DNA from: Spirochaetia bacterium
GTDB taxonomy: Bacteria > Spirochaetota > Spirochaetia > DSM-2461
Assembly (NCBI GenBank): GCA_963668315.1
Contig: OY764216.1
Span: 5,024,001 to 5,088,000, forward strand
Direction of reading: 5' to 3'
Length of the DNA: 64,000 bases
A model generated the notes under the pieces. That model ran no database searches, had not been told where the DNA came from, and saw only the letters and a list, made by a program, of their open reading frames with translations. Below, in pieces: positions 1 to 16,036 of this stretch (its first letter is position 1; every line of letters begins with the position of its first letter). The position numbers and the translations under genes are program-made.

Positions 1-55
1 TTTCCATTTATGGCTCGATGAATTGTTCTGACACCGTTCATGAATTGGCTACTGA

Positions 56-201
56 ATATAACAGCCAATATACGGCTCCGCTTCGCTCCGGCCCAAATTA
101 ACCCTTTGACCAATTCTGAAAAAAGTATGATATACTTTTCCCGAAATTGCTCAACCCCACAAGGGGCCGGGTTTACTTCGTATATTGGCGAAACGTTAGC
201 A
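56..201 (+). repeat. attC-like site, long type with internal promoter module
   Basis: ATATAAC-A-GCCAATATACG ... CGTATATTGGC-GAAAC-GTTAGCA; TTGACC(106)-19-TATACT(131) in the loop. Confidence 0.85.
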
Positions 202-269
202 AAATTTTTGTTTTCGGCTTCGTTATCGGTTTTCTGACCATCCGTGGTCAGAAAAAATGAAGGAGTAAC

Positions 270-1055
270 ATGGAAATTCAACATCTTGAGAAATACTATA
301 ATAATATTGATGAGGATGGAAGGCTCCTTTCAAAATATGGTTCAGTCGAATTTTTAACCACTATGAAATATATTCAAAAATATCTTACGCAGGATATGAA
401 GATTTTGGATATTGGGGCTGGAACAGGTATTTACAGCCTGGCTTTAGCTGATAAGTGTCATCATGTTGATGCCGTAGAGCTGATACAGAAAAATATTGAC
501 ATATTCAAATTAAAAATAGAAAAGCATAAGAATATTACAGTGCAAAAAGGAAACGCTCTAGATTTGAGTTTTCTGGAAGATAATTTCTATGATATTACGT
601 TGTTATTTGGCCCTATGTACCATCTTTATACAGAAGAGCATAAACTCAAAGCTCTTTCAGAAGCAATAAGGGTAACAAAACCAAAAGGCTATATTCTAAT
701 AGCATACTGTATGTCGGATGCAACTATTTTAAATTATGGGTTTGTAAAGAAAAATATTGTGGATCTTATTGAAAAAGAGATGTTAGATACGGAGGAATTT
801 AAGCCCCGGTCAGAACCGATAGATCTATTTGAACTTCATAGAAAGGAAGATATAGACCGCCTAAATAATAAATTTAATGTAAAAAGATTAAACTATGTAG
901 CTACAGATGGTTTTACAAATCATTTTAGAGAAACCGTGAATAATATGAGTGACAAAGAATTTGAGATTTATATGAAATACCATTTTTTCACGTGTGAACG
1001 AGAAGATATGCAAGGAATAACTCATCATAGTCTGGATATATTACAAAAACAATAA
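270..1055 (+). CDS. Class I SAM-dependent methyltransferase (cassette)
   Basis: ILDIGAGTG motif I, GNALDLS, LLFGPMYHL; RBS AAGGAG. Confidence 0.9.
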   Translation: MEIQHLEKYYNNIDEDGRLLSKYGSVEFLTTMKYIQKYLTQDMKILDIGAGTGIYSLALADKCHHVDAVELIQKNIDIFKLKIEKHKNITVQKGNALDLSFLEDNFYDITLLFGPMYHLYTEEHKLKALSEAIRVTKPKGYILIAYCMSDATILNYGFVKKNIVDLIEKEMLDTEEFKPRSEPIDLFELHRKEDIDRLNNKFNVKRLNYVATDGFTNHFRETVNNMSDKEFEIYMKYHFFTCEREDMQGITHHSLDILQKQ

Positions 1056-1125
1056 AAGAATGAGGAAATACTATACATCCCTGTATAGTATTATCTTCTA
1101 TCAGAAAATCCGAAAACAAAACTTC

Positions 1126-1326
1126 AGCTAACAGCGTTTATATGCTCCGCTACGCTCCGGGCTTCGCCAAATTTAAATCAAAAAGAATTATTTTAAAAAA
1201 AGAACAACAATTACGCTATAATAGATTCTATACAACAAGGATTTGCTACGGATTTGCCTATGTCACATTTCTTGTTTTCACAAGAAATTCGCCAATTACG
1301 GCAAACCGCAGAAATCGTCGTTCTAA
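1126..1326 (+). repeat. Composite attC-like site (left arm of long-type site + -10 element + second complete site 1230-1326)
   Basis: AGCTAAC-AGCG left arm; TATAAT 1217; ATACAAC-AAGGATTTGC...GCAGAAATCGTC-GTT; homologous to 3701-3893. Confidence 0.7.
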
Positions 1327-1346
1327 AGACAAAGAAGGGGGGGGGA

Positions 1347-1871
1347 ATGAGACTAGTTATACGATTAGCCACAAAAGAAGATTCATCAAGTATTCTTAGA
1401 GTAATTAATCAATCATATAATCCATATAAAAACTTAATACCAGCTAATTGTGGATTTGTAACTTCTATAGAAGAAATAATCAAAATTATGAAAGATGAGA
1501 GCTCCTCATGTTGGGTAGCTGAAAATAATGATAGTGTTATTGGTGTTGCTACTGGAATTACAATTGCTCCAAGAGCATATCATCTTAAGCTTTTATTTAT
1601 CGCAGAACATGCGCAACGCAAAGGTATAGCTTCGAACTTATTATCAACTTATGAAAATTCAGGCAAAAAAAAAGGGTATAAATTATTAACTACCAATTAT
1701 CAGAAATGGGCTCCATGGTCAAGAAACTTCTATCTTAAGCAAGGATATAAGGAATATATTGAGGGGGATGAATTAGATTTTCCAGATTTGCATGAAACGA
1801 TTTCTTTTTATAGAAGGATTGGTAAGTTAAATAATGATCGAAAATGTTTTATATGGAAAAAGACATGCTAA
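1347..1871 (+). CDS. GNAT family N-acetyltransferase (cassette)
   Basis: IRLATKED start, QRKGIASNLL acetyl-CoA motif, FYLKQGY. Confidence 0.85.
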   Translation: MRLVIRLATKEDSSSILRVINQSYNPYKNLIPANCGFVTSIEEIIKIMKDESSSCWVAENNDSVIGVATGITIAPRAYHLKLLFIAEHAQRKGIASNLLSTYENSGKKKGYKLLTTNYQKWAPWSRNFYLKQGYKEYIEGDELDFPDLHETISFYRRIGKLNNDRKCFIWKKTC

Positions 1872-1944
1872 GGTTACGGGTAAGGAGCACTAAATGCCAT
1901 CCGTGGCATTTACTGGACATACAGACAATAGGAATGGGCACTAA

Positions 1945-2090
1945 ACATAACAGCAAATGATGCGGTTATGGCTTTGCCTTCACCCAAATTGCCTTTGACA
2001 AATCCAAGAAAAAGCACGTATACTTTTCCTTAGATTTATCAACCCCTAAAGGGGTACCAGGCAACTTCGCATATTTGCAAAACGTTAAAT
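1945..2090 (+). repeat. attC-like site, long type with internal promoter module
   Basis: ACATAAC-A-GCAAATGATGCG ... CGCATATTTGC-AAAAC-GTTAAAT (one unpaired base); TTGACA-18-TATACT. Confidence 0.85.
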
Positions 2091-2129
2091 GAAATGTTTT
2101 GGGAGAAGATTTTTTTACAAGGAATTATT

Positions 2130-2585
2130 TTGAAACAACCAAGAATTGTAACTGTTTGCGGAGCTTTAGTTATTAACAATAATCAAGTTCTCATAATTCA
2201 GGAAGCTAATAAAAAGGCTTTTGGGAAATTTAATATTCCTGGAGGTCATGTTGATTTAGATGAAGATCTGAAGGAAACGGCTATCCGAGAAGTTAAAGAA
2301 GAGACGGGAATTCCCATCATTGTTGAAGATTTTCTTGGAGTCTATACTCATCAAGCACAAGATAAATCAACAATCATCAAAATAATATTTGTTGGAAAAC
2401 CCTGTGATTTTGAAATCAATTTTCCTAAGGATGAGATACTAAACGCTACTTGGATGAACATTGATGATTTTCTGAAAATCGAAGCTGATAAGTTACGTTC
2501 ACAAGATTTATTTTCAATAATTACAGATTATAGAAACAAGAATCAATGTAATTTATCATTAGTGAAAGATATTGTTAGAGTATAA
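2130..2585 (+). CDS. Nudix hydrolase (cassette; TTG start, alternative ATG 2094)
   Basis: Nudix box GGHVDLDEDLKETAIREVKEETG. Confidence 0.9.
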   Translation: MKQPRIVTVCGALVINNNQVLIIQEANKKAFGKFNIPGGHVDLDEDLKETAIREVKEETGIPIIVEDFLGVYTHQAQDKSTIIKIIFVGKPCDFEINFPKDEILNATWMNIDDFLKIEADKLRSQDLFSIITDYRNKNQCNLSLVKDIVRV

Positions 2586-2617
2586 TTTTATTCTGACCCA
2601 TTCTCCCAAAACACTTC

Positions 2618-2761
2618 ATCTAACAGCAAATGATGCGGTTACGCTTCGCTTCACCCAAATTGCCTTTGACAAATCCAGAAAAAAGTATGATATACTTTTC
2701 CCTGTATTTATCAACCCCTGCGGGGTACAAGGCAACTTCATATATTCGCGAAACGTTAAAT
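2618..2761 (+). repeat. attC-like site, long type with internal promoter module
   Basis: ATCTAAC-A-GCAAATGATGCG ... TATATTCGC-GAAAC-GTTAAAT; TTGACA-19-(TGa)TATACT. Confidence 0.85.
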
Positions 2762-2818
2762 ATAATTCAGGTTAGATGGATACTTGATTCAGCCATCCGT
2801 GGCCTCGAAGGAGAATGC

Positions 2819-3648
2819 ATGAGCAAAGATCACACTCCTATTTTAAGAAATTACAGGAATAATTGGTACAATGAAGATTATCTCTTGATTTAATTGCAAA
2901 AAGAATTGATCTTTATTCATGTGTAGACATTTTAGATGTTGGCTGTGGTGAATTTCATTGGACCCTATTACTTGCAAAATACTTTCCAGATAATTTTCAT
3001 TTAGTAGGTATTGATTTGAATGAGATAACTTTCTCAAAACTCACAGATATTAAAGAATTATATCCCAATTGGAATTTTATAAAAGGTGATATTAAGAGAT
3101 TGCCTTTTGAGGATAATTCATTTGATCTTGTTACATGTCAGACATTACTTATCCATCTAGACTCTCCGATTTTAGCTGTAAAAGAGATGTTCAGAGTACT
3201 AAAGCCAGGCGGAAAAGTACTCATTTCAGAACCTAATAATTTTTCTCAATCGACATTTAGAAATAGCTGGAATATAGATCATAGTACCCAGAAAAGATTG
3301 GATAGTATAACTGAAAAATTGAAAAGTGATGAGAAGAAAAAGAAAAATGGCCATGGTGATAATTCAATAGGAGAAATTGTTCCCATTCATCTCAGAAAAA
3401 ACGGTTTCTCAGAAATTAGAACCTATATGAATGATAAGGTTACCTCTCTTGTTCCTCCATATTCAACAATAGAAGAACAACAAAAAATTGATATGCTAAC
3501 TCATTTCTCAGAAAACTATCCATTTGAAATGTCAGAACAAGATAAAGAAGAATTAAATGATGAAATCCAAATGATCAGTCGAGAAGAGTATATTGCATAT
3601 AATCCAACAATGTTATTCCTGACTATGGGAGTCAAACCTCAGATATAA
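2819..3648 (+). pseudogene. Class I SAM methyltransferase cassette, frameshifted near 2883
   Basis: RBS+ATG 2819 (MSKDHT...) stops at 2893; the frame of ORF 3016-3648 is open upstream and holds motif I (ILDVGCG). Confidence 0.8.
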
Positions 3649-3700
3649 AAGTACGTCCTTGTACTTTTATTCAATCTTTTCCGTAATAACCTGGAACTAC

Positions 3701-3893
3701 ATTTAACAGCGAATGATATGCTCCACTTCGTTTCGGGCTTCGCCAAATTTCTATCAAAAAGAATTAGTTCCGAAATAGAGAATTTGTATGCTACAATGAA
3801 CAACAATATAACCAAGATTTGCTACTGTCACATTTCTTGTTTTCACAAGAAATCCGCCAGCTTCACGGTCTGCAGCAGAAATCGACGTTATCT
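3701..3893 (+). repeat. Composite attC-like site (left arm + extended -10 + second complete site 3806-3893)
   Basis: ATTTAAC-AGCGAAT left arm; TGcTACAAT 3789-3797; ATATAAC-CAAGATTTGC...GCAGAAATCGAC-GTTATCT. Confidence 0.7.
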
Positions 3894-3923
3894 TGACTAA
3901 ATATTTTTGAGGAGAAAATAAAA

Positions 3924-4319
3924 ATGTTAGGATTAACTTTATATATAGAAAATTCTAATGAAGCTTTAGATTTTTATTGTAATGCCTTCAAATTGGAATT
4001 GGGATATAATGTTAAAAATGATAATGGAACATATTTACATGCTGAACTTTTTAGACAAGGTTTTGGTGGTTTTGCAATAAGTGAATCAGATGATAAAATA
4101 ATTCAAAATGCAATGCTTGCAGCTAAACAGCCAACAATAAGTTTAGGGATGAATTTTGAAAGCAATGATGAATTAGATCATGCTTATGAAGTACTAGGAG
4201 AAGAAGGTCATATCCTACGTCCAATTGGTTCTCTTCCTTGGTCTCCATATTCAGCAGATGTTGTAGATAAGTTTGGGGTTTGTTGGTATTTATATGTAAC
4301 TCAGCATAAACCTGAATAA
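3924..4319 (+). CDS. VOC/glyoxalase family (PhnB-like) protein (cassette)
   Basis: EALDFYCNAF, HAEL, PWSPYSADVVDKFGVCW. Confidence 0.85.
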   Translation: MLGLTLYIENSNEALDFYCNAFKLELGYNVKNDNGTYLHAELFRQGFGGFAISESDDKIIQNAMLAAKQPTISLGMNFESNDELDHAYEVLGEEGHILRPIGSLPWSPYSADVVDKFGVCWYLYVTQHKPE

Positions 4320-4536
4320 TATTTGTTTCTTAACCATTCGGCTCAATGCCTCATTAAAGGCTTTTTCAGGGCGTTTACTGCCTTATAATAGCAAGTGAAT
4401 ATTTGATCCGAAATGTTCAATCCTTCAACTGTAGTCGTTCGGCATCCGTGCCTCACTACTTGGTAAATCCCGACGCATACTACTTATAACAGACGATATA
4501 TGTAATGATTTTTTGAGATTTATACAGGAGGGACAT

Positions 4537-4905
4537 ATGCCTGATTTTGATACAATTGACGATTATATCAATTCCCAACCAGAGGGTACAAAAGAAGCTC
4601 TATTTAAATTGAAGGATTGTATACTCAAAGCTGCTCCTGATGCAAAAGAATTATTCAATTATAGTATTCCTGCATTTGCTTTAGTAGAAAATGGGAAAAG
4701 AGAACAACAGATAATGATCGCAGGATACAAAAAGCATGTTGGGTTTTATCCACATCCAACAACTATTGAAAAATTCGCTAATAAATTAACTATATATAAA
4801 CAAGGTAAAGGATCTATTCAATTTCCAATAAACAAACCAATTCCTTGTGAACTGGTAATTGAAATGGTTAAGTATAGAAGAATGCGTGTTAAGGCTGGTA
4901 AATAA
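4537..4905 (+). CDS. DUF1801 / YdhG-like protein (cassette)
   Basis: TIDDYI, AGYKKHVGFYP, KGSIQFP; RBS AGGAGG. Confidence 0.85.
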   Translation: MPDFDTIDDYINSQPEGTKEALFKLKDCILKAAPDAKELFNYSIPAFALVENGKREQQIMIAGYKKHVGFYPHPTTIEKFANKLTIYKQGKGSIQFPINKPIPCELVIEMVKYRRMRVKAGK

Positions 4906-4956
4906 ATGACGCAAAAAGTCACTACATATAACACATATTAGGACCCCATCTGTCAA

Positions 4957-5390
4957 GGACAAATTTTCCCCTGTTCTATCTAGGTAGAACATTTTTATAT
5001 GAAGATGAACCGGACCGATAAAGAATGAAGCATTCTGTCTTGTTTCTCAAACGGGCTGCAGAAAAGATCTGCTCCAAACACACATAGACACTTTAACTCC
5101 GTAATTTTACGGCATTATAGAAATACATCCGTACCCAATCCTGTCATAATCAATGAAAACGGATTTCTTGGGGAATCCAGTTATTTTCGTGATCAGGCTG
5201 GTGCAGAATTCTTCCAGACTTTCTCAATCCTGGTTATTTAAAACAGGTCGAAGCAGATATCCAATCAGCGAACGCATAATTCTTCTTTCAAATGATAAAT
5301 ACGAATGATAGTCATGCTATAAAAAGCCGTATTTACGGTCATTATCTTTTTATGATTATAGTTATACGTTAGGCTTATCTGCTCCACCTG
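4957..5390 (-). ncRNA. Candidate bridge/seek RNA region of the IS1111-type element
   Basis: ~430 nt non-coding region downstream of tnp, as in IS1111; contains match to target (5266-5272) and to donor junction (5081-5086). Confidence 0.6.
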
Positions 5391-6437
5391 TTATGAACAA
5401 AAACGGTCTATATCAAAGGCTTTCCTCCTTTTGAGAACATAATATACAGCTCTGGCTAATTTATGGGCCATGATGGAATAGGCTTTCCCGTTTCCAAACT
5501 TTTGCACTAATCTCTGATGATATGATTTTATCTCCGGGCAATAGCGGATGAACATGACGGCCGCTTCGGAGAAAGCCCACTTGAGATTAGCATTGCCGAT
5601 TTTGGTATTTTTGGATGCATACTGCTTTCCTCCCGATTCCCTCTGACACTTGACTACGCGGCAATAGGAAACGAAGTTCTGTACACGAGGAAAACGGTTA
5701 ATGTCTTCAATTTCATAGAGAATAGTCAGGGCAAGCACATCACCTATCCCGGGAATAGATTTCAACAAAGAAAATGCTAGAGGATCAGAATGATTTGCTG
5801 CCTTCAAAACACGAGATTCTATCTTCCGGATCTGTTCGGTTAACGCATCAACGACGGCTATGTCGACTTCCATATTCATTTTGACCGCCGGATCATCAAA
5901 CCGTTCGAGTAATTCAGTCTTCGAAGCAATCGTAAGAGAATTGATCCCCTTCTTTATGGTATCGAAATTGTATTGGGTATTGGTATTCTGGATATGAGAA
6001 AGAAGATCTGATCTCCTGCGAACAAGATATATTCGCCGTCTGAAGAGGTCTCGAATAGCTCTGGTTTTCTGTGGGTAGACATAGGCTTGAGGGATCAGGC
6101 CACCTTTTAGCAATGCCGCTATCTTCTGGGAATCGATTTTATCGTTCTTGGTTTTTCCTCCGCTTATAGCCTTCATGTAGAGGGCGTGGCCAAGGACAAA
6201 GGGAATACTGTTTAGCTGGCAGTAATCGGCAATCCAGTACCATGTGAAAATACACTCGACACAGATGACGATATCATTAAGAAAGGGGGCGATCGCTTGT
6301 TGAAGGTGAACCGGATCAGCGATCATGTTTTTATGATAGACGATTTCGCCATCCTGGTTCATAATGCAGATATACATCTTTTTCGTGTGGAGATCGATTC
6401 CGCAGTAAAAGTTGTGTTGTTGGGTATAAAATTTCAT
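5391..6437 (-). CDS. IS110-family DEDD transposase/recombinase
   Basis: GIDLH, VE, KNDKID catalytic motifs; SIPGIG; RESGGK serine loop; GNANLKWA; RBS AAGGAG. Confidence 0.95.
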   Translation of the reverse strand: MKFYTQQHNFYCGIDLHTKKMYICIMNQDGEIVYHKNMIADPVHLQQAIAPFLNDIVICVECIFTWYWIADYCQLNSIPFVLGHALYMKAISGGKTKNDKIDSQKIAALLKGGLIPQAYVYPQKTRAIRDLFRRRIYLVRRRSDLLSHIQNTNTQYNFDTIKKGINSLTIASKTELLERFDDPAVKMNMEVDIAVVDALTEQIRKIESRVLKAANHSDPLAFSLLKSIPGIGDVLALTILYEIEDINRFPRVQNFVSYCRVVKCQRESGGKQYASKNTKIGNANLKWAFSEAAVMFIRYCPEIKSYHQRLVQKFGNGKAYSIMAHKLARAVYYVLKRRKAFDIDRFCS

Positions 6438-6503
6438 AAGGGCTCCTTTGGTTAAGGTTGTTGGAAATTTTAACATAACCACTAGGGGTCCTTATGATTA
6501 TCA

Positions 6504-6577
6504 GCGAATATGCGGTTCCGCTGCGCTTCACCAAAATTGCCCGTTGGGCAACTTCACCTATTCGCGAAACGTTATCG
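6504..6577 (+). repeat. Remainder of short-type attC (no promoter module), split from its R'' (4926-4933) by the IS
   Basis: GCGAATATGCG...TTGCC-CGTTG-GGCAA...CTATTCGC-GAAAC-GTTATCG. Confidence 0.85.
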
Positions 6578-6651
6578 GCAATAAGCGCCAAAGCATTTAT
6601 TATTCAAAGGAAAATCCGGCGTTCTGCCGGATAAAATGGAGGAAATTAAAA

Positions 6652-7071
6652 TTGGATTTACCAATATTGAAAGATAAAGATATTTTTCCTGATAGTAATG
6701 TTTTAAGAAAAGCTTTGAATGATGATTTTAAAATATTTCAAGAATTTGAAACAACAATTACAAATGGTGAACACAAGTTAGTTGGCGAATGGAGATATTA
6801 CAATGATGGTAAAGCTTGGATTTATAAAGCTCAATATAAAAAGAAAACAGTATTTTGGCTATCAGTCATATCAACCGGATTTACTGTAACATTTTATTTT
6901 AATGGAAAAAATTATGAAGGTGTTTTTGACTTGTCAATTGAAGAGTCAATTAAAGATGATTTCAAAAAAATGGAATTAGTTGGAAAATTACATCCTCTAC
7001 AAATCAGTGTAAATAATACGAATCAAATACCAGACATACTAGACATTATTGAGTATAAGAAAAAGTCATAA
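6652..7071 (+). CDS. DUF3788-like protein (cassette; TTG start)
   Basis: EWRYYNDGKAW..K...KKKTVFWLS; RBS GGAGG. Confidence 0.75.
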   Translation: MDLPILKDKDIFPDSNVLRKALNDDFKIFQEFETTITNGEHKLVGEWRYYNDGKAWIYKAQYKKKTVFWLSVISTGFTVTFYFNGKNYEGVFDLSIEESIKDDFKKMELVGKLHPLQISVNNTNQIPDILDIIEYKKKS

Positions 7072-7099
7072 TGTAAGTCGCAAGAATTTTTGGGGAAAA

Positions 7100-7582
7100 A
7101 TGAGAAAAGACAAAAAGAAAATGATATATTTTTCTGGACCTCCCTGTTCTGGTAAATCAACGATTTGTAAAGAATTGACTAAAAAAATAAGAAATGTTGA
7201 ATATGTTCTTGGTGATAAATATTGGATAAAGAATGATGATTGTGACTTTAATAGACGAAGAGTGAGAACTAATGAAGATATATTAAAATCACTTTGGAAT
7301 AAAACATCAAAGTCATTACTTTTAGAATGGGTTCCATATAATGGATCATTCATATCAGAACTAAAAAAGATCTGTGAAGAACAAAGATTGGAATTCAATC
7401 ATGTCGTTATTTATGCTCCAAAGGATATACTTGAACAAAGAAAATTACTTCGAGATAAAAATAAAGAATTGGGTCCAATAAATTTCGAGGAAATTAAAAA
7501 ACTGGAAAATGTTTTACTTTTTGACTCTAGTATTGAGTCGTTAAAATCAATTGTTCTAGAATGTGAAAAGTTATTTGATTGA
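7100..7582 (+). CDS. P-loop kinase / AAA_33-like protein
   Basis: SGPPCSGKST Walker A. Confidence 0.75.
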   Translation: MRKDKKKMIYFSGPPCSGKSTICKELTKKIRNVEYVLGDKYWIKNDDCDFNRRRVRTNEDILKSLWNKTSKSLLLEWVPYNGSFISELKKICEEQRLEFNHVVIYAPKDILEQRKLLRDKNKELGPINFEEIKKLENVLLFDSSIESLKSIVLECEKLFD

Positions 7583-7935
7583 GTTCTATTTAGTCGAAAA
7601 ATGGTATCCGGATATTTTTCTATAAATTGTGCCCGTTCGTCGTCCTGGCCATAAAAGGATACCCGTCCCCATTTCACCACGATTGCCGATTTTATCTCCT
7701 CCCGTCAGGAGGAGATTACTTCCCTCTTCACCATGATCCTGTCCGTCTGTTACAAAGGCATTCCCGCTGATATGATAGAAAAAGGCACAGGATTATTCCA
7801 TTATAGAATAATGAGCTATCGAGGAGGCGTGAGGCCATATCTCTGGAACGGGGCTCCCCTGGCCATCCGCCAATAAAAAGCCCGGGGAAACCACGGGCCG
7901 ATGTTATGTCTTGGAAATAATCTTGTTTATCCGGA

Positions 7936-10908
7936 TCAGGGATGATTATTGGTCAGATACGGAAACCCGTTGTTTTCATCAATGGACCAGACCGGCTGCC
8001 CGGAGGTAAAATCAAATCCTGAAAAATTTGATTGATGAGTCATTTCCTCTTCCGTTCGAGGGGTAACGCCGGTAACTGTTGAAACGGCCGCGCCATCCGG
8101 ATCGCAGTAGACAGCGGTTAAGCTGGATGCATCGGAATTATAGTAACAGTTTTCAATGATTGGTAAATCACTACCGTATCTGCCAAGCATTGTTCCTGAC
8201 TCTACGGAGGCGGTTATTCCGCAGGATGAATAACTGTTTGATAGGGTCAGATTAGCTCCGCTTGCTCCGATTAACCCGCCTACGCTCTCGGAACTGCTGT
8301 TTCCAAGGGTTCCGATGGAGTAGCAATCCGTAATCGTACTATCAGCGGTTAGAGCGCCCAGCAGTCCTCCAACACACGTTATTCTGCCTGCTGTGGGGGT
8401 TACAGTAATATTTGAATAACAGGATGATACGTTAAGAGAGGAACTTGTATACATGCTATGTGCGTCCCCGATTATACCGCCCAGGCATGATCCGCTTCCT
8501 GTGCATTTAATGGTCACTTCAGCAGAACTGTTGCTTATATCGGATATTGTTTCAGAGTCTCCAATATTAAGATATCCAATTAGCCCCCCAATCTTGTTGC
8601 CGTATCCGCTGAAAGTTGTTGATGAGACATGGCAGTCTGAAACAACTATGCTGCCTTTGGCTAACCCTATAAGGCCGCCCATAGCCTGCTCGCCATAGCT
8701 GTCAAAGGAACCCGAGACGGTGCATGCGTTTATTGTTCCGCTTACCATCTCGCCGACAATAGTCCCTAGATAATAACTAGAAGGACATTTCATGCTGACA
8801 TTTACAAAGTTTATATTCGTTATAGTGATATTGTCTGCATAGCCCAGGAGCCCCTGATCATAGTTATTAGATGTGATTTTCAGGTTGCTGATAGTATGGC
8901 CCTGCCCGTCTATGATACCGGTGAACTTAGACCATGCGTCAGGTCCTACGGGTGTCCATTCTTTGGTATCATCATCGATAGAAAGATCAATATCCGCGGA
9001 GATAAGGTAGAAACCGCTTCGATCATCCGACATGTCGGCCAGTTGATCCGGTGTTGCAGGATAATAAACATTTCTTGATACATCATCGTAGAGGCAAATG
9101 TTGACCCCTTCACCGTTTGCTGATTCATTGCCCGCCGCATCCACAGCTACAAGCAGTGGGAGATAAGTTCCTCCGGTCGCAAGTCCATTGAATGTATAGG
9201 TTGTTTCTCCGTTTTCCAGTTTCACCTGTGCGCTGCTGTTGTAACTTACAAGAACGTGGTCAAAACTTGGATCATCTGAAGGGGTACTCCAGTTTATCGT
9301 AATTTTTCCGCCTCCGGCTTTAGTAATTACCGGATTTATCGTTTGAGGTTTACTTGAGTCATAAATGACTGTACAGCTGGTTTCTTTGGAAGTAATACCA
9401 TAGACATCTGAAGCCGCCCCGTTCCGGACTGTAACGGTAACGTCTTTTTCTACATTTGCTTCTGCGGTTACTATGATCTCGGCAGTATACGTTTTGTCGC
9501 TTCCGGTTATTTCGGATAGTCTTCCGTTTGTTACAGCTATGTCGTCGCTGTCCAAACCTGATACATTCTTATTAAAGCTGAGATTAATCGTAAAGATCTC
9601 TGCACTAGTGTAGCCCCTGTTAACATCATCGGGCGTCATTATTAGGATTACTTCTGCAGACCACATGGCATACAGTGTTATATCTGAAGTTACGATCTGT
9701 ATGGAACTTCCGGTTCTGTAAGAGGTTCCGCTGCCGTCGGCCGCTGTGTTCCATCCGGCAAAACCGTTTCCTTCAAGGGTAAACTCACAGCTCGGCAGTG
9801 TTATCGTCGCGCCCTCTGCCACGGACCTGGACGCCATCGTCCCATCCCCTCCGTTGGCGTCAAAGCTCAGGGTATGCATAATCTGCAACCATACCGCATA
9901 TAGGGTTATGTCTGACGAGGCCATAGTAAATGTACTGCCCGCGGCGTATGTCTCTCCGCTGCCGTCGGCCGCCGTGTTCCATCCGGCAAAACTGTATCCT
10001 ACAAGAGTAAAATCACAACTAGGCAGTGTTACCGTCGCGCCCTCCGCCATGGTCCTGGACGCCATCGTCCCATCCCCGGTGTTGGCGTCAAAGCTCAGGG
10101 TATGCATATTCTGCGACCATACCGCATAGAGGGTTATGTCTGAAGCGGCCATAGTAAATGTACTGCTCGCGGCGTATGTTGTTCCGCTGCCGTCGGCCGC
10201 CGTGTTCCAGCCGGCAAAACTGTATCCTACAAGGGTAAAATCACAACTCGGCAGTATCTCAGGAGCGCCCTCAGCTACGATTCGGGACGCCATTGTCCCT
10301 TCTCCGCCGTTGGCGTCAAAGCTCAGGGTATGCACATTCTGTGACCATACCGCATAAAGGGTTATGTCTGCCGTGGCCATAGTGAATGCACTGCCCGCGG
10401 CGTATATCGCTCCGCTGCCGTCGGCCGCCGTGTTCCATCCGGCGAAACTGTATCTTTCAAGGGTAAAATCACAACTCGGCAGTGTTACCGTCGCGCCCTC
10501 TGCCACGGTCCCGGACGCCATTGTCCCTTCCCCGCCGTTGGCGTCAAAGCTCAGGGTATGCACATTCTGCGACCATACCGCATAGAGGGTTATGTCTGCC
10601 GCGGCCATAGGAAATGTACTGCCCTCGGCGTATGTCGTTCCGCTGCCGTCGGCCGCCGTGTTCCAGCCGGCGAAGGAGAAATTTGTTTTTGCCAATCCTC
10701 CCGTATTGCCCCGAACCGTAACGGAAGCCCCGCTAAGGTAAGATGTGCTGTCGACCGGTACTGTTCCGGACGTGGTGCCGTTGCCATCGTAGATGACCAT
10801 GAAGGTTCTACTAGCCGGTGAATCCATTGGGCATCCGCTAACAAGGGCCGCGAGAGTTATCATCAAGATAACCGCAAACGCCCTTAGCATATTTGTTGTC
10901 TTTTTCAA
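7936..10908 (-). CDS. Surface lipoprotein with five InlB-B (Listeria-Bacteroides) repeats, Ig/Fn3-like and GLUG-type C-terminal region
   Basis: Lipobox LVSGC; FAGWNTAADGSG...ITLYAVW repeats; FTGIIDGQGHTISNL, GGLIG repeats. Confidence 0.85.
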   Translation of the reverse strand: MKKTTNMLRAFAVILMITLAALVSGCPMDSPASRTFMVIYDGNGTTSGTVPVDSTSYLSGASVTVRGNTGGLAKTNFSFAGWNTAADGSGTTYAEGSTFPMAAADITLYAVWSQNVHTLSFDANGGEGTMASGTVAEGATVTLPSCDFTLERYSFAGWNTAADGSGAIYAAGSAFTMATADITLYAVWSQNVHTLSFDANGGEGTMASRIVAEGAPEILPSCDFTLVGYSFAGWNTAADGSGTTYAASSTFTMAASDITLYAVWSQNMHTLSFDANTGDGTMASRTMAEGATVTLPSCDFTLVGYSFAGWNTAADGSGETYAAGSTFTMASSDITLYAVWLQIMHTLSFDANGGDGTMASRSVAEGATITLPSCEFTLEGNGFAGWNTAADGSGTSYRTGSSIQIVTSDITLYAMWSAEVILIMTPDDVNRGYTSAEIFTINLSFNKNVSGLDSDDIAVTNGRLSEITGSDKTYTAEIIVTAEANVEKDVTVTVRNGAASDVYGITSKETSCTVIYDSSKPQTINPVITKAGGGKITINWSTPSDDPSFDHVLVSYNSSAQVKLENGETTYTFNGLATGGTYLPLLVAVDAAGNESANGEGVNICLYDDVSRNVYYPATPDQLADMSDDRSGFYLISADIDLSIDDDTKEWTPVGPDAWSKFTGIIDGQGHTISNLKITSNNYDQGLLGYADNITITNINFVNVSMKCPSSYYLGTIVGEMVSGTINACTVSGSFDSYGEQAMGGLIGLAKGSIVVSDCHVSSTTFSGYGNKIGGLIGYLNIGDSETISDISNSSAEVTIKCTGSGSCLGGIIGDAHSMYTSSSLNVSSCYSNITVTPTAGRITCVGGLLGALTADSTITDCYSIGTLGNSSSESVGGLIGASGANLTLSNSYSSCGITASVESGTMLGRYGSDLPIIENCYYNSDASSLTAVYCDPDGAAVSTVTGVTPRTEEEMTHQSNFSGFDFTSGQPVWSIDENNGFPYLTNNHP
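9660..10800 (-). repeat. Five intragenic tandem repeats of ~228 bp (76 aa)
   Basis: CCGCTGCCGTCGGCCGC recurs every 228 bp. Confidence 0.9.
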
Positions 10909-11583
10909 TTAGGGAATCTCTCCTTCCATATTGTATAATATAGGTGGAATATATACGAAGCAGAGTTCCCCGTCGTCCGGATATATATTTTGGGACTTTT
11001 TTGGAGAAAAAAGTTCATGTTTCTTTAATCGGTCCCGGAGGATCGGCTGTTCAATTCAAATACGGTGATACTGTAAGGCATAAGCTCATATTTAAAATTC
11101 TCAGAGGCGAGAGTCAATTCTTCTATATACTTGACCTCCGCGGAAGATGAATCAAAGTATAAACCTTCGCTTTGCCGTTATGGGGTTCATAGTCTCCCTT
11201 TGAATCAAAAGCGTCATTCAATTTTCCGTCCCGTTTATTTATCCCTATGACCACCATTCTGTCTTGATTAATCGAATCCCGACTTGCGAAGACCGAACAT
11301 AGCTCCTTATCCGTGGAATGGGCGGGGATGAAAAAACTGAACAGATTCATCCTGAGGAGCAAATCGAGAGTGAATCCCCAATGGCTTTTGTACGGCATGG
11401 TTCATAATATCGGAAAGATTCAGAGGTATGGGGGAAGATAGGAGATGATAAAATGGGAGAATGATAGGGATTTGAGACGAAGGCTTTAATGCCCGGAGGC
11501 GTGATTCTGCTGGATGCGGGTTATTCTACAGTCTCGTTATGCCTACAGAAGGTTTGATTTAATCAAGAATAGGTAGCGCGAAG

Positions 11584-11829
11584 ATGACGACTGTTAGGTT
11601 AAATGATGAAATTGAGACTAAATTATCAATGCTGACAGATATAGAAAAATCATCTAAATCAGAGGTGATTAAAAAGACAATTGCAGAATATTATGAATCC
11701 CATTACCAAGATAAAACTCCCTATGAACTGGGTGAGAGTCTATTCGGAAAATATGGAGCAGATGAGAATTTATCGCTGAATTATAAAGAAAAGCTTAAGG
11801 ATATGCTTAATGAAAAATACTCTCATTGA
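11584..11829 (+). CDS. CopG/RHH-type antitoxin
   Basis: TTVRLNDE...SKSEVIK; overlaps PIN gene. Confidence 0.75.
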   Translation: MTTVRLNDEIETKLSMLTDIEKSSKSEVIKKTIAEYYESHYQDKTPYELGESLFGKYGADENLSLNYKEKLKDMLNEKYSH

Positions 11830-12046
11830 TGCTGGTCCATTAATTGCCCTGTTTAATAAGAACGATAAATATAATCGACAAATAACAACATTCCTGAAAA
11901 ATTATACTGGCCGATTACTTAGCAGTTGGCCCGTAATTACAGAAATTTCCCATATGTTGAGCTTCAATGTACAAACTCAGATTGATTTTTTAACGTGGGT
12001 CAAACGGGGAGGAATACGCAAGCGAAAAAGACAGAATGAGATATAG
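11810..12046 (+). pseudogene. PIN-domain (VapC-like) toxin, C-terminally truncated
   Basis: LIDAGPLIAL...D.Y, WPVITE; only 78 aa, lacks distal acidic residues. Confidence 0.7.
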
Positions 12047-12317
12047 GGTTTATTTTTAAAAGTAACGGGTGTAGGGTTATGATGGTTGGAGGAGACGATT
12101 CCTACGATACTGGTGAGATTCTCTGCGATAGAATCTCATTTAGAAAGGAGGATCATTGAAACTCCATGGGACGGACGGTTTCGTCCAAATTCACCGCCTA
12201 TCTGCTCGCGCAGAGATGGACGGCTAAGAGTTATACGATATTTAAAGCAGTAACACAAAAGATGCAAAATAATGTTTCAATATAGTAGAATAAATGATTT
12301 TTATTTTGGAGAGTTAA

Positions 12318-13142
12318 ATGAAAGAGAAATTCCCGCTAAGGTTTTTCATCATTGCATTTGCATGGTCGTGGATAATTTGGTTACCTTTAATACTTGCTGG
12401 CTTTGGAATAATTCCAATAAATAAAGAATTATTAGCTTCGATTGAAACTCCAGTATCAATTGTCGCTGCATTTGGACCAGCTATTGGTGCATTTGTTTCA
12501 TTGCGAACTCTCGATGGTAAAGGAGCTGTTGCTTCTTATATTAGGTCATTTCTTAATCTTAAATTTGGATTAAAAGTCTGGATTTGGATCTTTTTTGTAT
12601 TAGGTCTAAGTACTGTTGCTTCTTGGTTTTTACCAGAATTATTTGGGGAACCCCGTCTAGCAATGCTATTACCAAATATTTATATTTTTCCAATATATTG
12701 GTTAATCATGGTATTCTTTGGGGGAGGGCAAGAAGAAATAGGATGGAGGGGTTATATTTTAACTTTTCTTGAAAGACGCTTTGGACTCTTTTGGGGTTCC
12801 TGCGTTTTAGGATTGATTTGGGCCTGTTGGCATATTCCCCTGTGGTTTATTCCTGGAACAAGTCAAACATATATGAACTTTTTCGGATTTATAATGCTAA
12901 CTACAGGTTACTCCTTTTTCTTTTCTTGGATAATGAAAGCTTCCGGGAATCGTCCGTTAGCGGGGTTGATTGCCCATGGAACAGCAAATGCATTTATTCC
13001 CCTTTTTCCGGTTTTAATAATGAAGCTTGAAGTGCCGCAAGTTAGATTCTGGATTTGGACATCATTAACTTTAATTATTGGTATTATCTTTATATTTGTA
13101 AAAATCAATAATCCTAATGGTTCTCACAAGCAAAGCACATAA
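12318..13142 (+). CDS. CPBP (CAAX/Abi) family intramembrane protease (cassette)
   Basis: EEIGWRG, WACWHIP, AHGTAN. Confidence 0.9.
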   Translation: MKEKFPLRFFIIAFAWSWIIWLPLILAGFGIIPINKELLASIETPVSIVAAFGPAIGAFVSLRTLDGKGAVASYIRSFLNLKFGLKVWIWIFFVLGLSTVASWFLPELFGEPRLAMLLPNIYIFPIYWLIMVFFGGGQEEIGWRGYILTFLERRFGLFWGSCVLGLIWACWHIPLWFIPGTSQTYMNFFGFIMLTTGYSFFFSWIMKASGNRPLAGLIAHGTANAFIPLFPVLIMKLEVPQVRFWIWTSLTLIIGIIFIFVKINNPNGSHKQST

Positions 13143-13295
13143 CAGTGGTTCCGCGGTCTGCAGATTCGCCTTCTATGCGTCATTACTTCACCCAGATGCC
13201 CTTTGACAAATCCCCGCATTAAGATGATATAATTAAACAATATTTCATCAATCTATCGGGATTGCTGACTTTACGGAAGCATAAAACAACATTTG
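13137..13295 (+). repeat. Degenerate long-type attC with promoter module
   Basis: ACATAAC overlaps stop; CTTCACCCA..GCCCTTTGACAAATCC shared with other sites; TTGACA-19-(TGa)TATAAT; right arm eroded. Confidence 0.6.
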
Positions 13296-13321
13296 TAGAT
13301 CATGTATTAGAGGAGAATCCA

Positions 13322-13687
13322 ATGAGCGAAATAATCAGAGGTGATGTTAACGAGGAATGGGCACATTCAGGCTATGTAGTAGCTGGGGATTTTGTGTTCC
13401 TGAATTACTGTGTTGGTAATGTGGGGAAATCAGTAAAAGAGCAGATTGAAGGAGCTCTTGATAATATGGAAAAACGCCTGAAAGAAGTAAATCTTACTCT
13501 GGAAAATGTAGTAAAGGTGGACGTTCTTTTCAGAGATGTTTGGAATATTCCTGTTATGGAAGAAGTATTTAAGAGGCGGTTCAAGGGAAAATATCCGGCG
13601 AGGAAAACTATTTCGACTGATTTTGCCCATGCCGGGGGCCCGGACGGCCTTGAATTCCAAATCGATGGAATTGCTTACAAAGGATGA
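13322..13687 (+). CDS. RidA/YjgF family protein
   Basis: LENVVKV, YPARK, FQIDGIAY. Confidence 0.85.
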   Translation: MSEIIRGDVNEEWAHSGYVVAGDFVFLNYCVGNVGKSVKEQIEGALDNMEKRLKEVNLTLENVVKVDVLFRDVWNIPVMEEVFKRRFKGKYPARKTISTDFAHAGGPDGLEFQIDGIAYKG

Positions 13688-14208
13688 ATGATCAACGCCA
13701 TCGATTAAGGAATATTTGCTTCGCTTCAATTCGGGCCCGAATTGGCCTGGGGTAATCGTTGTATGATTTTATTAATTCCCAACAAACAAGCCGACACCAT
13801 GTGAATTAATAATTGGAATGGTTCAATAGAAACGGAAACTTGTCAGAGAGAACAAGTAGACGACTATGATAGTCACGATAAATTACAGCAAATATACGGA
13901 TATAAAGAATGTTTTGATAAGCTGCTTCTTCAGGAACCATAGCTAAAGGACAATTTTTATGGGTTGTGGATCTGAATAAAGATAGGGATCCCCCTGACAG
14001 CTTAACAATGGCAGGCCGACAGGAAACATTCCCGGTTCTCCCCTTTCATTTCTGGGGTATGTGGTTCATGACATGTATTTTAATGCGTAAGGCAAGCATA
14101 CTTTTCAGAGAGTTATCAAACCGGATGTAAACGGCCGGTTGCAGAGAAGTAACCCCGGGTTGATTGCCTGATCTCCGGGTTAGGGTAAAATACTCGCAAG
14201 GAGTAATT

Positions 14209-14880
14209 ATGGATTTCGGAAACAGAATACATGAATTAAGAAATAATGCAGGTCTGACCCAGGAGCAGCTGGCGGAGAAACTGGATATCTCAAGACAGTC
14301 GGTAACGAAATGGGAAAAGAATCTCTCCCTCCCCGATATAGATAAACTGATAGAATTAAGCCTCATTTTCGGTGTATCCATAGATTATCTGATAAAAGGG
14401 AGAAGCAAATATTCAGATTATGATAACTCAGAAACTGAGGATTATGAAATAATAAAATCCTTTCTCTGTACGGCGAAACAAAATACATACGCCGCCCATG
14501 GCGCGGAAGTGGCATCCTCAAGATCACACTCCCATGACCTCTCTTTTCAAGATGGGATTTTTTCCTATTTGGATTCCTATTTTGGCGGTGAAAGCTTCAT
14601 AGGAGAAGAGGTCCTATATGTGGGTGGAGAGCCCTTCTGGGCTATGAATTATTCGGGACGTGTTCTTGATGGTAATTTTTCAGGTGATTTTCTCAAAGAG
14701 TGTTTATCGGCCGTAAAGATTGAGAGACCATTCAGGGGACCGGAAATCCATAAAAACGGCAATTTCACTTATCATTCCAGCGTGAGGGGGGATTTTGGTT
14801 GGTTCACCGGCGAAGAAGATATCTTTTTTCAAACAGAGAAAGTTTATGAGTGCATTTTTCACGGGGGAAGGATAAAATAG
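14209..14880 (+). CDS. XRE HTH regulator fused to DUF5680-like domain
   Basis: GLTQEQLAEKLDISRQSVTKWE; AKQNTYA, YLDSYFGG, WAMNYSG, PFRGP. Confidence 0.8.
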   Translation: MDFGNRIHELRNNAGLTQEQLAEKLDISRQSVTKWEKNLSLPDIDKLIELSLIFGVSIDYLIKGRSKYSDYDNSETEDYEIIKSFLCTAKQNTYAAHGAEVASSRSHSHDLSFQDGIFSYLDSYFGGESFIGEEVLYVGGEPFWAMNYSGRVLDGNFSGDFLKECLSAVKIERPFRGPEIHKNGNFTYHSSVRGDFGWFTGEEDIFFQTEKVYECIFHGGRIK

Positions 14881-14915
14881 ATCCTTGCTTCGGCCATGGC
14901 AAAAGGACGGGACAG

Positions 14916-15539
14916 ATGAAAGAGAAGAGCTGTAAAACACAGGCTATCCTCGAAGAGTCGGGAAATAACCATTCCAGGGCGCTCCGGATAATCGAAGAAT
15001 TGCACATAGTCGAGGCTTGGGAAAGGTATCACTCACAGGCGAACCTTGTCGGTTCGGTTGCCACCAATCTCCTTATGAATCATCTGGATATCGATTTTCA
15101 TATCTATTCAGAGAGATTCAGCATAAAAGACAGTTTTTCTGCGGTGGGCGAAATAGCGTCATCTGAGAGGGTGAAAAAAGTTACCTATAGTAATAATATT
15201 AACCGGGAAGACAGGTGTGTGGAATGGCATCTTGAATACGAAGACGAAGGGGCAGAAATCTGGCAGATTGACCTGATTCACCTTCTTAACGATTCGCCCT
15301 ATGTGGGAAAATTTGAGCGGGTTGCTGAAAAAATACAGAAAGCCCTGGATTCCGAATCAAGAAGCAGGATACTGGAAATCAAATGGGAACTTTCAAAGCA
15401 GAATAAAAAGGTCATGGGAATTGAAGTCTGCCGGGCTGTCCTCGAAGGCGGAGTTCATTCATACAGAGATTTTCTGAAATGGCAGCAGGAGAATCCCGTT
15501 ACGGGTATTGTCCTGTGGGAACCACTCCTCGGCAGCTGA
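14916..15539 (+). CDS. Hypothetical protein, nucleotidyltransferase-like
   Basis: LVGS...LDIDFH motif. Confidence 0.6.
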   Translation: MKEKSCKTQAILEESGNNHSRALRIIEELHIVEAWERYHSQANLVGSVATNLLMNHLDIDFHIYSERFSIKDSFSAVGEIASSERVKKVTYSNNINREDRCVEWHLEYEDEGAEIWQIDLIHLLNDSPYVGKFERVAEKIQKALDSESRSRILEIKWELSKQNKKVMGIEVCRAVLEGGVHSYRDFLKWQQENPVTGIVLWEPLLGS

Positions 15540-15583
15540 CCGAGTTTGCTTATTCAGATCTATCCGTTATTTTAAGGAGTTTT

Positions 15584-16036
15584 ATGAACGTATCGATTCT
15601 GCCGGAATCCCCGGAGAGCAGAGAAGCGGCCATGCTTATGGGGGAATTATCCGCCATACTTGAGTCCATAACAGGAGACAGCGGTCAATCATCCTTCAGC
15701 AATGAAGATGTCGCAAACAACAGATCGGTCTTTCTTATCGCCCGTGATCAGAGGAATTCACCCGTCGGCTGCGGAGCCATTCGCCCCTTGGATGATCATT
15801 GCGGAGAGATTAAGAGAATGTACTCAAAATTACCGGGATTAGGCTCCCGTATTTTGACCTGCCTGGAAGAGAGGGCCGGGACCTTAGGCTATCGGATTCT
15901 CAGACTGGAAACAAGAAAGATTAATGAAAGGGCGGTTAGTTTCTACTTGCGCAACGGATACGATATAATTGAGAATTATGGAAAGTACCGGGGAAACGAA
16001 AAGGCTGTCTGCTTTGAGAAAAAGCTGGTCGGATAG
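15584..16036 (+). CDS. GNAT family N-acetyltransferase
   Basis: VGCGAIRPL, EIKRMY, LRLET, AVSFYLRNGY. Confidence 0.85.
   Translation: MNVSILPESPESREAAMLMGELSAILESITGDSGQSSFSNEDVANNRSVFLIARDQRNSPVGCGAIRPLDDHCGEIKRMYSKLPGLGSRILTCLEERAGTLGYRILRLETRKINERAVSFYLRNGYDIIENYGKYRGNEKAVCFEKKLVG

Follow-up and report, generated by a model that had tools for sequence, protein, structure and literature searches.

A putative RNA-guided IS110-family element at a fixed position of integron attC sites, and the predicted guide map of its downstream RNA

Within the window, the 64,000-nt stretch of DNA analysed here, an IS110-family element lies at G/TT (the slash marks the junction) in the R'' box of an integron attC site. 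We propose that its recombinase is guided by an RNA from the downstream end of the element, in which loop A would address the target, loop C the donor and loop B a second target. We assign this reading a probability of roughly 0.8, and hold just as firmly that an element with a guide-bearing downstream end is real, RNA-guided and directed at attC. The original prediction was of a TG-core recombinase element of the IS110 family, guided by RNA and directed at attC, and both the covariation of guides with targets and the location of the genomic copies in attC bear this out. The element, its core, its place in the attC and its downstream non-coding region are confirmed by copies, domains and sequence, and the five short motifs that had been named all lie where they had been placed. 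The features are listed in Table 1.

Table 1. Coordinates of the element, the interrupted attC site and the predicted RNA features (window positions)
Feature	Position	Strand	Basis
Cassette gene (DUF1801), its attC interrupted by the element	4513..4905	+	domain match, sequence
attC R'' box; its minus strand gives the right target (G/TTATAT)	4926..4932	+	motif, copy comparison
Rest of attC: left target 6504-6510 (minus strand), inner stem, R' box 6571-6577	6504..6577	+	sequence
IS110-family recombinase, 348 aa	5391..6437	-	domains, IS621 residue alignment
Element interior, 1568 nt	4934..6501	-	identical in 5/5 genomic copies
TG core, right junction	4932..4933	-	copy comparison
TG core, left junction	6502..6503	-	copy comparison
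Right sub-terminal inverted repeat, 10/11 match to left repeat, 3 nt inside core	4937..4947	-	sequence
Left sub-terminal inverted repeat, 6 nt inside core	6485..6495	-	sequence
-35 hexamer TTGACA; predicted partner is an extended -10 formed only on end joining in the circle	4951..4956	-	sequence
Loop A hairpin, predicted main target-binding module, outer stem 5390-5372/5262-5244	5244..5390	-	consensus fold
Right target guide ACGTATAAC	5361..5369	-	alignment, covariation
Left target guide TTCGCTG	5266..5272	-	covariation
Predicted multi-branch RNA domain, loops B and C, ~180 nt	5030..5211	-	closing stem 5211-5203/5039-5030, compensatory pairs
Loop B right guide-like segment ATAAC	5180..5184	-	alignment, covariation test
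Loop B left guide-like segment TTCATTG, weak target covariation	5151..5157	-	covariation test
Right donor guide, 6/9 match here	5120..5128	-	alignment, covariation
Left donor guide ATGTGTG, 6/7 identical to left donor plus core, one G:T wobble	5079..5085	-	covariation
Conserved consensus hairpin 3' of donor loop; this copy breaks several of its pairs	5054..5075	-	consensus fold

The element and the attC site it interrupts

The recombinase matches PF01548, PF02371 and NF033542, the last with 200 bits against a cut-off of 140 in the profile search. It carries the DEDD_Tnp_IS110 and Transposase_20 domains with the DEDD residues and the catalytic serine; D15, E61, D99, D102 and S268 align with D11, E60, D102, D105 and S241 of IS621. 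The non-coding stretch downstream of the gene measures about 460 nt, compared with about 65 nt upstream. The sub-terminal inverted repeats are 11 bp long with one mismatch, and their distances to the cores, 6 (left) and 3 (right) nt, become 8 and 3 if the left TG is counted once; the rule given for the IS1111 group in the accessible part of PMC11187229 is repeats of 11-13 bp located 7 (or 6) and 3 bp from the ends.

Joined to each other, the two ends would read TTGACA, 18 nt and TGn-GATAAT, which are promoter elements as far as the sequence goes. By analogy with IS621 and ISEc11, such a junction in a circular form would create a promoter transcribing both the gene and the RNA. In the relatives TTGAC is present by construction, since it belonged to the right-end search pattern (90 of 163 loci found). 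The assembly does not contain the 16-nt motif of the end-to-end junction, and neither a circle junction nor an empty-site joint appears in the contigs of four runs, contigs being prone to drop rare forms.

Removal of the element restores an 82-nt palindrome bounded by AAC...GTT, of a family found after each cassette gene of the array. We regard it as an attC on the grounds that this imperfect, AAC...GTT-bounded palindrome follows a cassette gene within an array; taken by itself, its fold energy is modest, with 19 of 300 shuffles as stable. The start of the cassette (4495-4503) is complementary to 4924-4932 at 8 of 9 positions. The insertion places 1.57 kb between R'' and the rest of the site, which would likely block its use by the integrase for as long as the site stays interrupted. 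Where the element end stands in for R'', folding of the inner stem is retained (-13.2 vs -12.8 kcal/mol), but GTT becomes GAT. The earlier suggestion that the element "freezes" the cassette is a reasonable one.

Across the whole genome, five copies of the element have identical interiors. In each case the insertion point is the same base of an attC, following the G of the GTT on the bottom strand of R'', and all five lie at the 5' end of the attC, antisense to the cassette gene; the expectation that other copies would be found in the same kind of site is therefore confirmed. They represent four independent insertions, because the middle copy of a tandem trio is a hybrid produced by a 729-nt duplication: its left flank is that of one neighbour and its right flank that of the other, and the 729-nt unit is duplicated around it without a mismatch. 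The three tandem copies (G000:C1:5015398-5021559) flank two identical 729-nt cassette units. The duplication probably arose through recombination between element copies, with an assembly artefact as the alternative. In sequencing runs X1 and X2, the depth of the element contig is about 5x that of its flanks; the two runs derive from one sample, possibly the source of the assembly, and are therefore not independent evidence. In run X4, from a second sample, the element is joined to other flanks. At two junctions, one belonging to a copy in this genome (G000:C1:3442633-3442660, 28 bp) and one to the relative L164 (15 bp), the right end of the element is tandemly repeated.

Predicted guide RNA and covariation with targets

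Alignment of 90 downstream regions reveals three homologous modules. In each, U-G/A-G comes after a right guide, and farther along (A/U)UUGG-like bases come after a left guide. Modules were counted by alignment anchors, since a count by motif alone missed this very element; the loop anchors are present across the 90 aligned ends. In the consensus fold of 68 non-redundant sequences, positions 5390-5244 form a long hairpin, A, and positions 5211-5030 another domain, with loops B and C. A second consensus fold, from 29 chosen sequences, has the same layout, with a compensatory (double) change in 26 of 29 pairs. Rfam gave no matches in positions 1-16000 of the window.

Burial of the guides in stems had been named as an observation that would speak against the guide reading. 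The consensus leaves the guides unpaired, except for the 3' end of the right donor guide, whose UUUC is predicted to pair with a conserved GAAA (5047-5044) in relatives. When the RNA of this copy is folded alone, the right target guide is buried by pairing with bases upstream of the left guide, and the left one is partly buried, which counts against our reading; the unpaired probability is 0.11 for the right target guide and 0.33 for the left one.

The relatives comprise 163 loci obtained from two scans and a search of 401 genomes. A left end was located in 124 of them, a right end in 90 and both in 76; as the core G and some donor bases were set in the search patterns for the ends, divergent ends are missed and these columns are invariant by construction. 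Among 8,000 scored candidate relatives, 7,963 lie at E<=1e-50. The covariation set consists of 66 elements with both ends and 12 nt of flank on each side (L088 was dropped for a false end call), with 52-73% protein identity to this recombinase. A Vibrio campbellii plasmid element, at 49% identity, has by eye the same ends and three modules. Orientation, judged by flanking reading frames in 56 relatives, is antisense only in 25, sense only in 6, both in 2 and neither in 23. These figures replace an earlier count (31/61 vs 2/51 controls), which was discarded as biased because TAAC itself supplies a stop codon.

Covariation was assessed by shuffling targets among one element per cluster, with 44 clusters at 85% identity and a floor of p 0.0005; clustering lessens the relatedness among elements without removing it. 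All four guides reach this floor. Out of 9 positions, the left target guide matches at 5.28 on average (4.32 when permuted), the right target guide at 6.45 (5.57), the left donor guide at 6.71 (6.23) and the right donor guide at 5.67 (5.24). With 24 clusters at 75% identity, p is <=0.0015 for the left target, right target and left donor guides and <=0.01 for the right donor guide. The covariation persists under GC stratification, the six cross-pairings of guides are not significant by permutation, and in register shifts from -2 to +3 the signal appears at offset 0 only, all shifted registers being null. The mean guide-target match in the relatives is just 5-6 of 9. At left donor position 4, guide and donor carry the same base in 61 of 66 elements. 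The predicted covariation of guides with targets across homologous elements is thus found for four guide segments in the 66 relatives.

Individual base changes follow the same pattern. In L103 the core has naturally switched from TG to CG, and the change is present at either junction as well as in each of the three left guides. Four elements with GTA targets carry the matching base change in both right target guides (loops A and B), and three of the four also mismatch the core G in loop A. Six relatives (L013, L014, L019, L044, L077 and L153) lack attC-like pairing upstream, and four of them have GTA targets and changed guides; their sequences suggest sub-lineages retargeted away from attC. 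The first core base deviates in 10 of the 66 elements (7 G, 3 A; L013, L022, L024, L044, L055, L094, L095, L137, L150 and L156). The deviation is confined to the right junction, the left one being unaffected in all ten, and pairing of this purine with the conserved U that follows the right target guide would be possible. In close relatives from runs X5, X9, X14 and X15, guide position 5365 is changed in 4/4 and position 5270 in 2/4; these changes are left uncounted because the targets are not readable.

The guide map differs in several respects from that of the original prediction. The left target guide at 5266-5272 stands, as it covaries with targets in the relatives. The caution that the short matches are individually weak applies to the other four motifs (P 0.10-0.53 in Markov-1 random sequence) and not to this one (P=0.014). 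The right target guide had been placed at 5233-5237, after the left one and within an IS621-like order of left target, right target, left donor and right donor. Every loop in fact runs from right guide to left guide, as in IS1111 seekRNAs, and the actual right target guide at 5361-5369, upstream of 5266-5272, had been missed together with the second target-like loop. Positions 5233-5237 belong to the A-B linker, with 64% occupancy and 9% identity to relatives; a segment ending in AAC aligns there in 1 of 66 elements, compared with 59 of 66 at 5361-5369. Permutation does give this stretch a nominal signal, with 1.3 of 5 matches against 1.04-1.08 (p 0.003 without stratification, median 0.01-0.02 with GC stratification), which is only partly explained, yet its match is far below guide level. 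The candidate for the left donor guide, 5081-5086, is 2 nt out of register (p 0.06) relative to the homologous guide at 5079-5085. Neither candidate for the right donor guide covaries: 5017-5021 gives p 0.16, and 5146-5152, which is the end of loop B plus scaffold, gives p 0.17.

Proposed mechanism and competing explanations

The steps we propose are modelled on IS621, ISEc11 and CazIS110-1, from which circle, junction promoter, dual-strand pairing, cutting and strand transfer are taken over. Loop A is predicted to read the target and loop C the joined element ends, with loop B likely acting as a second, looser target-reading loop. The right guide, first in each loop, would pair with the top strand 3' of the core, and the left guide with the bottom strand 5' of the core. 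Cleavage after the core G, and the joining of element to target, would be the work of the composite DEDD/serine site. For related systems it is disputed, in the accessible parts of PMC11208158 and bioRxiv 10.1101/2025.10.25.684509, whether transfer is two-stranded or involves the top strand only.

Loop B covaries only weakly with targets. Its left segment does so at p 0.0025 (44 clusters), 0.03 (24 clusters) and 0.011 (GC-stratified), and its right segment at p 0.02, 0.08 and 0.12, respectively. Loop B may instead be a structural or vestigial duplicate that binds the recombinase without reading DNA, leaving loops A and C as the only guides; we consider this a genuine possibility, though a doubtful one. 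The weak covariation and the pyrimidine-rich left segment are in its favor, as is the best-of-two test, where loop B adds nothing to loop A (p 0.30 and 0.89). Furthermore, loop B resembles loop A within elements more than between elements (p 0.001), so its signal could be borrowed. Against it, the core change in L103 is mirrored in loop B, as is the GTA change in 4/4 elements that have it, and the anchors of loop B persist in all 90 aligned ends. The idea that loop B reads the donor halves was rejected, the pairings of its left segment with the left donor and of its right segment with the right donor not being significant.

Another arrangement, which we think unlikely, would split the RNA in two: loop A would be released as a stand-alone target RNA and loops B and C would form a complete bridge RNA, hard-wiring the direct-transfer route proposed for CazIS110-1. 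The layout fits, since A is a separate hairpin on a variable linker while B and C share a closing stem and have approximately the size of the IS621 bridge RNA. In CazIS110-1, a truncated target-loop RNA and a full bridge RNA cooperate, according to the available text of bioRxiv 10.1101/2025.10.25.684509. As the main target loop, however, B should covary at least as strongly as A, and among the 66 elements loop A matches the target better in 50, equally in 10 and worse in 6.

Target choice in this genome bears on whether RNA pairing or some other property directs insertion. We scored 33,120 genomic TGTT sites against loop A (maximum 13). The two best matches in the genome are both occupied, and three of the four independent targets rank in the top 9; the fourth matches at 10/13, which 691 sites in the genome attain. 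Match scores are higher at occupied attC ends than at 15 empty ones (p 0.025), of which one is weak and probably truncated; one empty attC reaches 12/13. The 9-nt motif CGC-TG-TTAT, picked after seeing the data, occurs at 4/4 occupied attC ends and 0/15 empty ones. The empty site proposed earlier at 3705-3713 does exist, but it mismatches the right target guide (TTAA instead of TTAT). Guide match appears to decide which attC sites are hit. Since 41 of the 46 genomic CGC-TG-TTAT sites, lying outside the attC set, are empty, attC context or selection probably contributes in addition to base pairing.

It is improbable that the folded attC structure, or counter-selection elsewhere, is the main determinant with RNA pairing secondary. 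These unoccupied motif sites and the mediocre match of one target would fit such a view. So would the attC-like pairing found upstream in 63 of 88 testable relatives, compared with 34 of 219 control positions, and the target stem-loop gate reported for ISPpu10 in the part of bioRxiv 10.64898/2026.03.19.712850 available to us. Register-specific covariation and the core change in L103, in contrast, need base pairing, and local hairpin energy over the 30 nt upstream fails to single out the occupied sites.

Relation to known elements and the surrounding arrays

The published IS1111-attC group (ISKpn4, ISPst6, ISPa21 and ISPa25), as far as the accessible text of PMC11187229, PMC3001079 and PMC13604230 describes it, shares several features with the present element: insertion near the attC 5' end and antisense to the array, a downstream non-coding region, sub-terminal repeats, and a top-strand guide preceding the bottom-strand guide, the seekRNA order reported by Siddiquee et al. 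(PMC11187229). That group inserts at AA/CG, 6 nt before GTT (PMC13604230, Table 1), whereas this clade inserts after the G of GTT, which puts the two insertion points about 7 nt apart. The IS1111 seekRNA, in the description available in PMC11187229, has one target loop; here we predict two target-type loops and a donor loop. The IS1111 clade motif GL-P----S(t)G given there is replaced by CRVVKCQRESG in this protein. The designation "IS1111-type" used in the original prediction is thus apt for the layout (downstream RNA, guide order) and does not extend to the protein lineage (motif, identities).

In the supplement of PMC11208160, as far as it could be consulted, the IS1111-attC group forms one cluster and ISGsu4, ISGsu5, ISShfr7 and ISShwo5 belong to another that carries the motifs of this protein, CGIDLH, W-Y-W and C-R-x-V-K-C (see also PMC11187229). 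By eye, 66 of the first 122 residues of ISGsu4 and this recombinase are identical. ISGsu4 is listed as IS110 in the consulted supplement of PMC11187229, with 21% identity to IS1111A and 17-18% to ISPst6, ISKpn4 and ISPa21. On these sequence grounds the transposase groups with ISGsu4-type elements, outside the published IS1111-attC group, a separation drawn indirectly, through the ISGsu4 identities, cluster rows and motifs. That the element is an ordinary member of the IS1111-attC group is highly improbable: the attC end, antisense orientation, downstream RNA and guide order agree, but the transposase cluster, the motifs and the insertion point differ, and so do the identities of ISGsu4, its nearest named relative. 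No record named ISKpn4, ISPa21 or ISPst6 was among the matches listed in plasmid searches.

With IS621 and ISCro4 (PMC11208160 and PMC11208158 in their accessible parts; PDB 8wt6, 9t56) the element shares the DEDD plus serine active site and a 2-nt core with a stricter second base; a junction promoter and separate target and donor loops are predicted for it as well. Their upstream RNA, left-guide-first order, CT core and two loops are unlike what is predicted here, and the protein is only distantly related to this recombinase (E about 1e-9). CazIS110-1 (bioRxiv 10.1101/2025.10.25.684509) offers a precedent for a separate target-loop RNA beside a bridge RNA, but in the available text its short RNA is a truncation of its one bridge RNA and not a second encoded loop as here. 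ISPpu10 (bioRxiv 10.64898/2026.03.19.712850, same restriction) is a precedent for a target hairpin that adds specificity; its targets are REP-type repeats.

In the literature open to search, the names ISGsu4, ISGsu5, ISShfr7 and ISShwo5 led to no description of targets or RNA. Searches for three-loop or two-target-loop bridge RNAs and for IS110 with attC and integron, covering sources other than subscription journals, the Science ISCro4 papers, ISfinder comments and preprint supplements, likewise found no account of this clade's target or RNA. The element likely works like known RNA-guided recombinases, judging by analogy. By sequence comparison, it differs from the known bridge RNA and seekRNA recombinases in its separate lineage, its insertion point and its predicted three-loop RNA. 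A far-reaching version of this reading strikes us as rather unlikely in its entirety: a large, widespread IS110 lineage would have evolved attC targeting independently of the IS1111-attC group, with a cut at G/TT mirroring the integrase crossover. It would encode a donor loop and a pair of functional target loops, so that a single recombinase would run a natural system of two RNAs or two addresses, its core naturally switchable from TG to CG.

The element is of significance as it provides a legible guide map, backed by covariation, for a branch of RNA-guided recombinases that is uncharacterised and includes thousands of relatives. The TG core and its natural CG variant widen the address space beyond the CT core of IS621 and ISCro4. 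If functional, the third loop bears on the dispute over target-only RNAs, full bridge RNAs or both. Integron cassettes would also have, in this clade, a second lineage of parasites, one that likely freezes parts of arrays.

The one integron integrase above the family cut-off in this genome (L001, G000:C1:3134145-3135380) lies at 3.13 Mb, 1.9 Mb away and far from both arrays, and the profile hits in its vicinity include no attC of this array's family. At the usual place of intI, and divergent from the array's first cassette, is a gene for a 266-aa tyrosine recombinase (L003, G000:C1:5010731-5011531), which scores 183.5 bits on TIGR02249 against a cut-off of 265 and skips profile positions 175-239. 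It is possibly a short integron integrase; a literature search found no match for one of this kind. A similar gene lies at 4.638 Mb.

Several further observations concern the arrays. At 4484-4503 of the window, an apparently truncated attC ends in TAAC, followed after 4 nt by the next cassette start with GAT for GTT. One methyltransferase cassette, together with its neighbouring attC, is present in each of the two arrays, which lie 1.6 Mb apart (window 270-1055 and G000:C1:3439437-3440171), and the reading frame is shorter in the second array (244 vs 261 aa). Just past the array, the minus strand of 7936-10908 in the window encodes a 990-aa protein with about five tandem repeats and a lipoprotein-like start.
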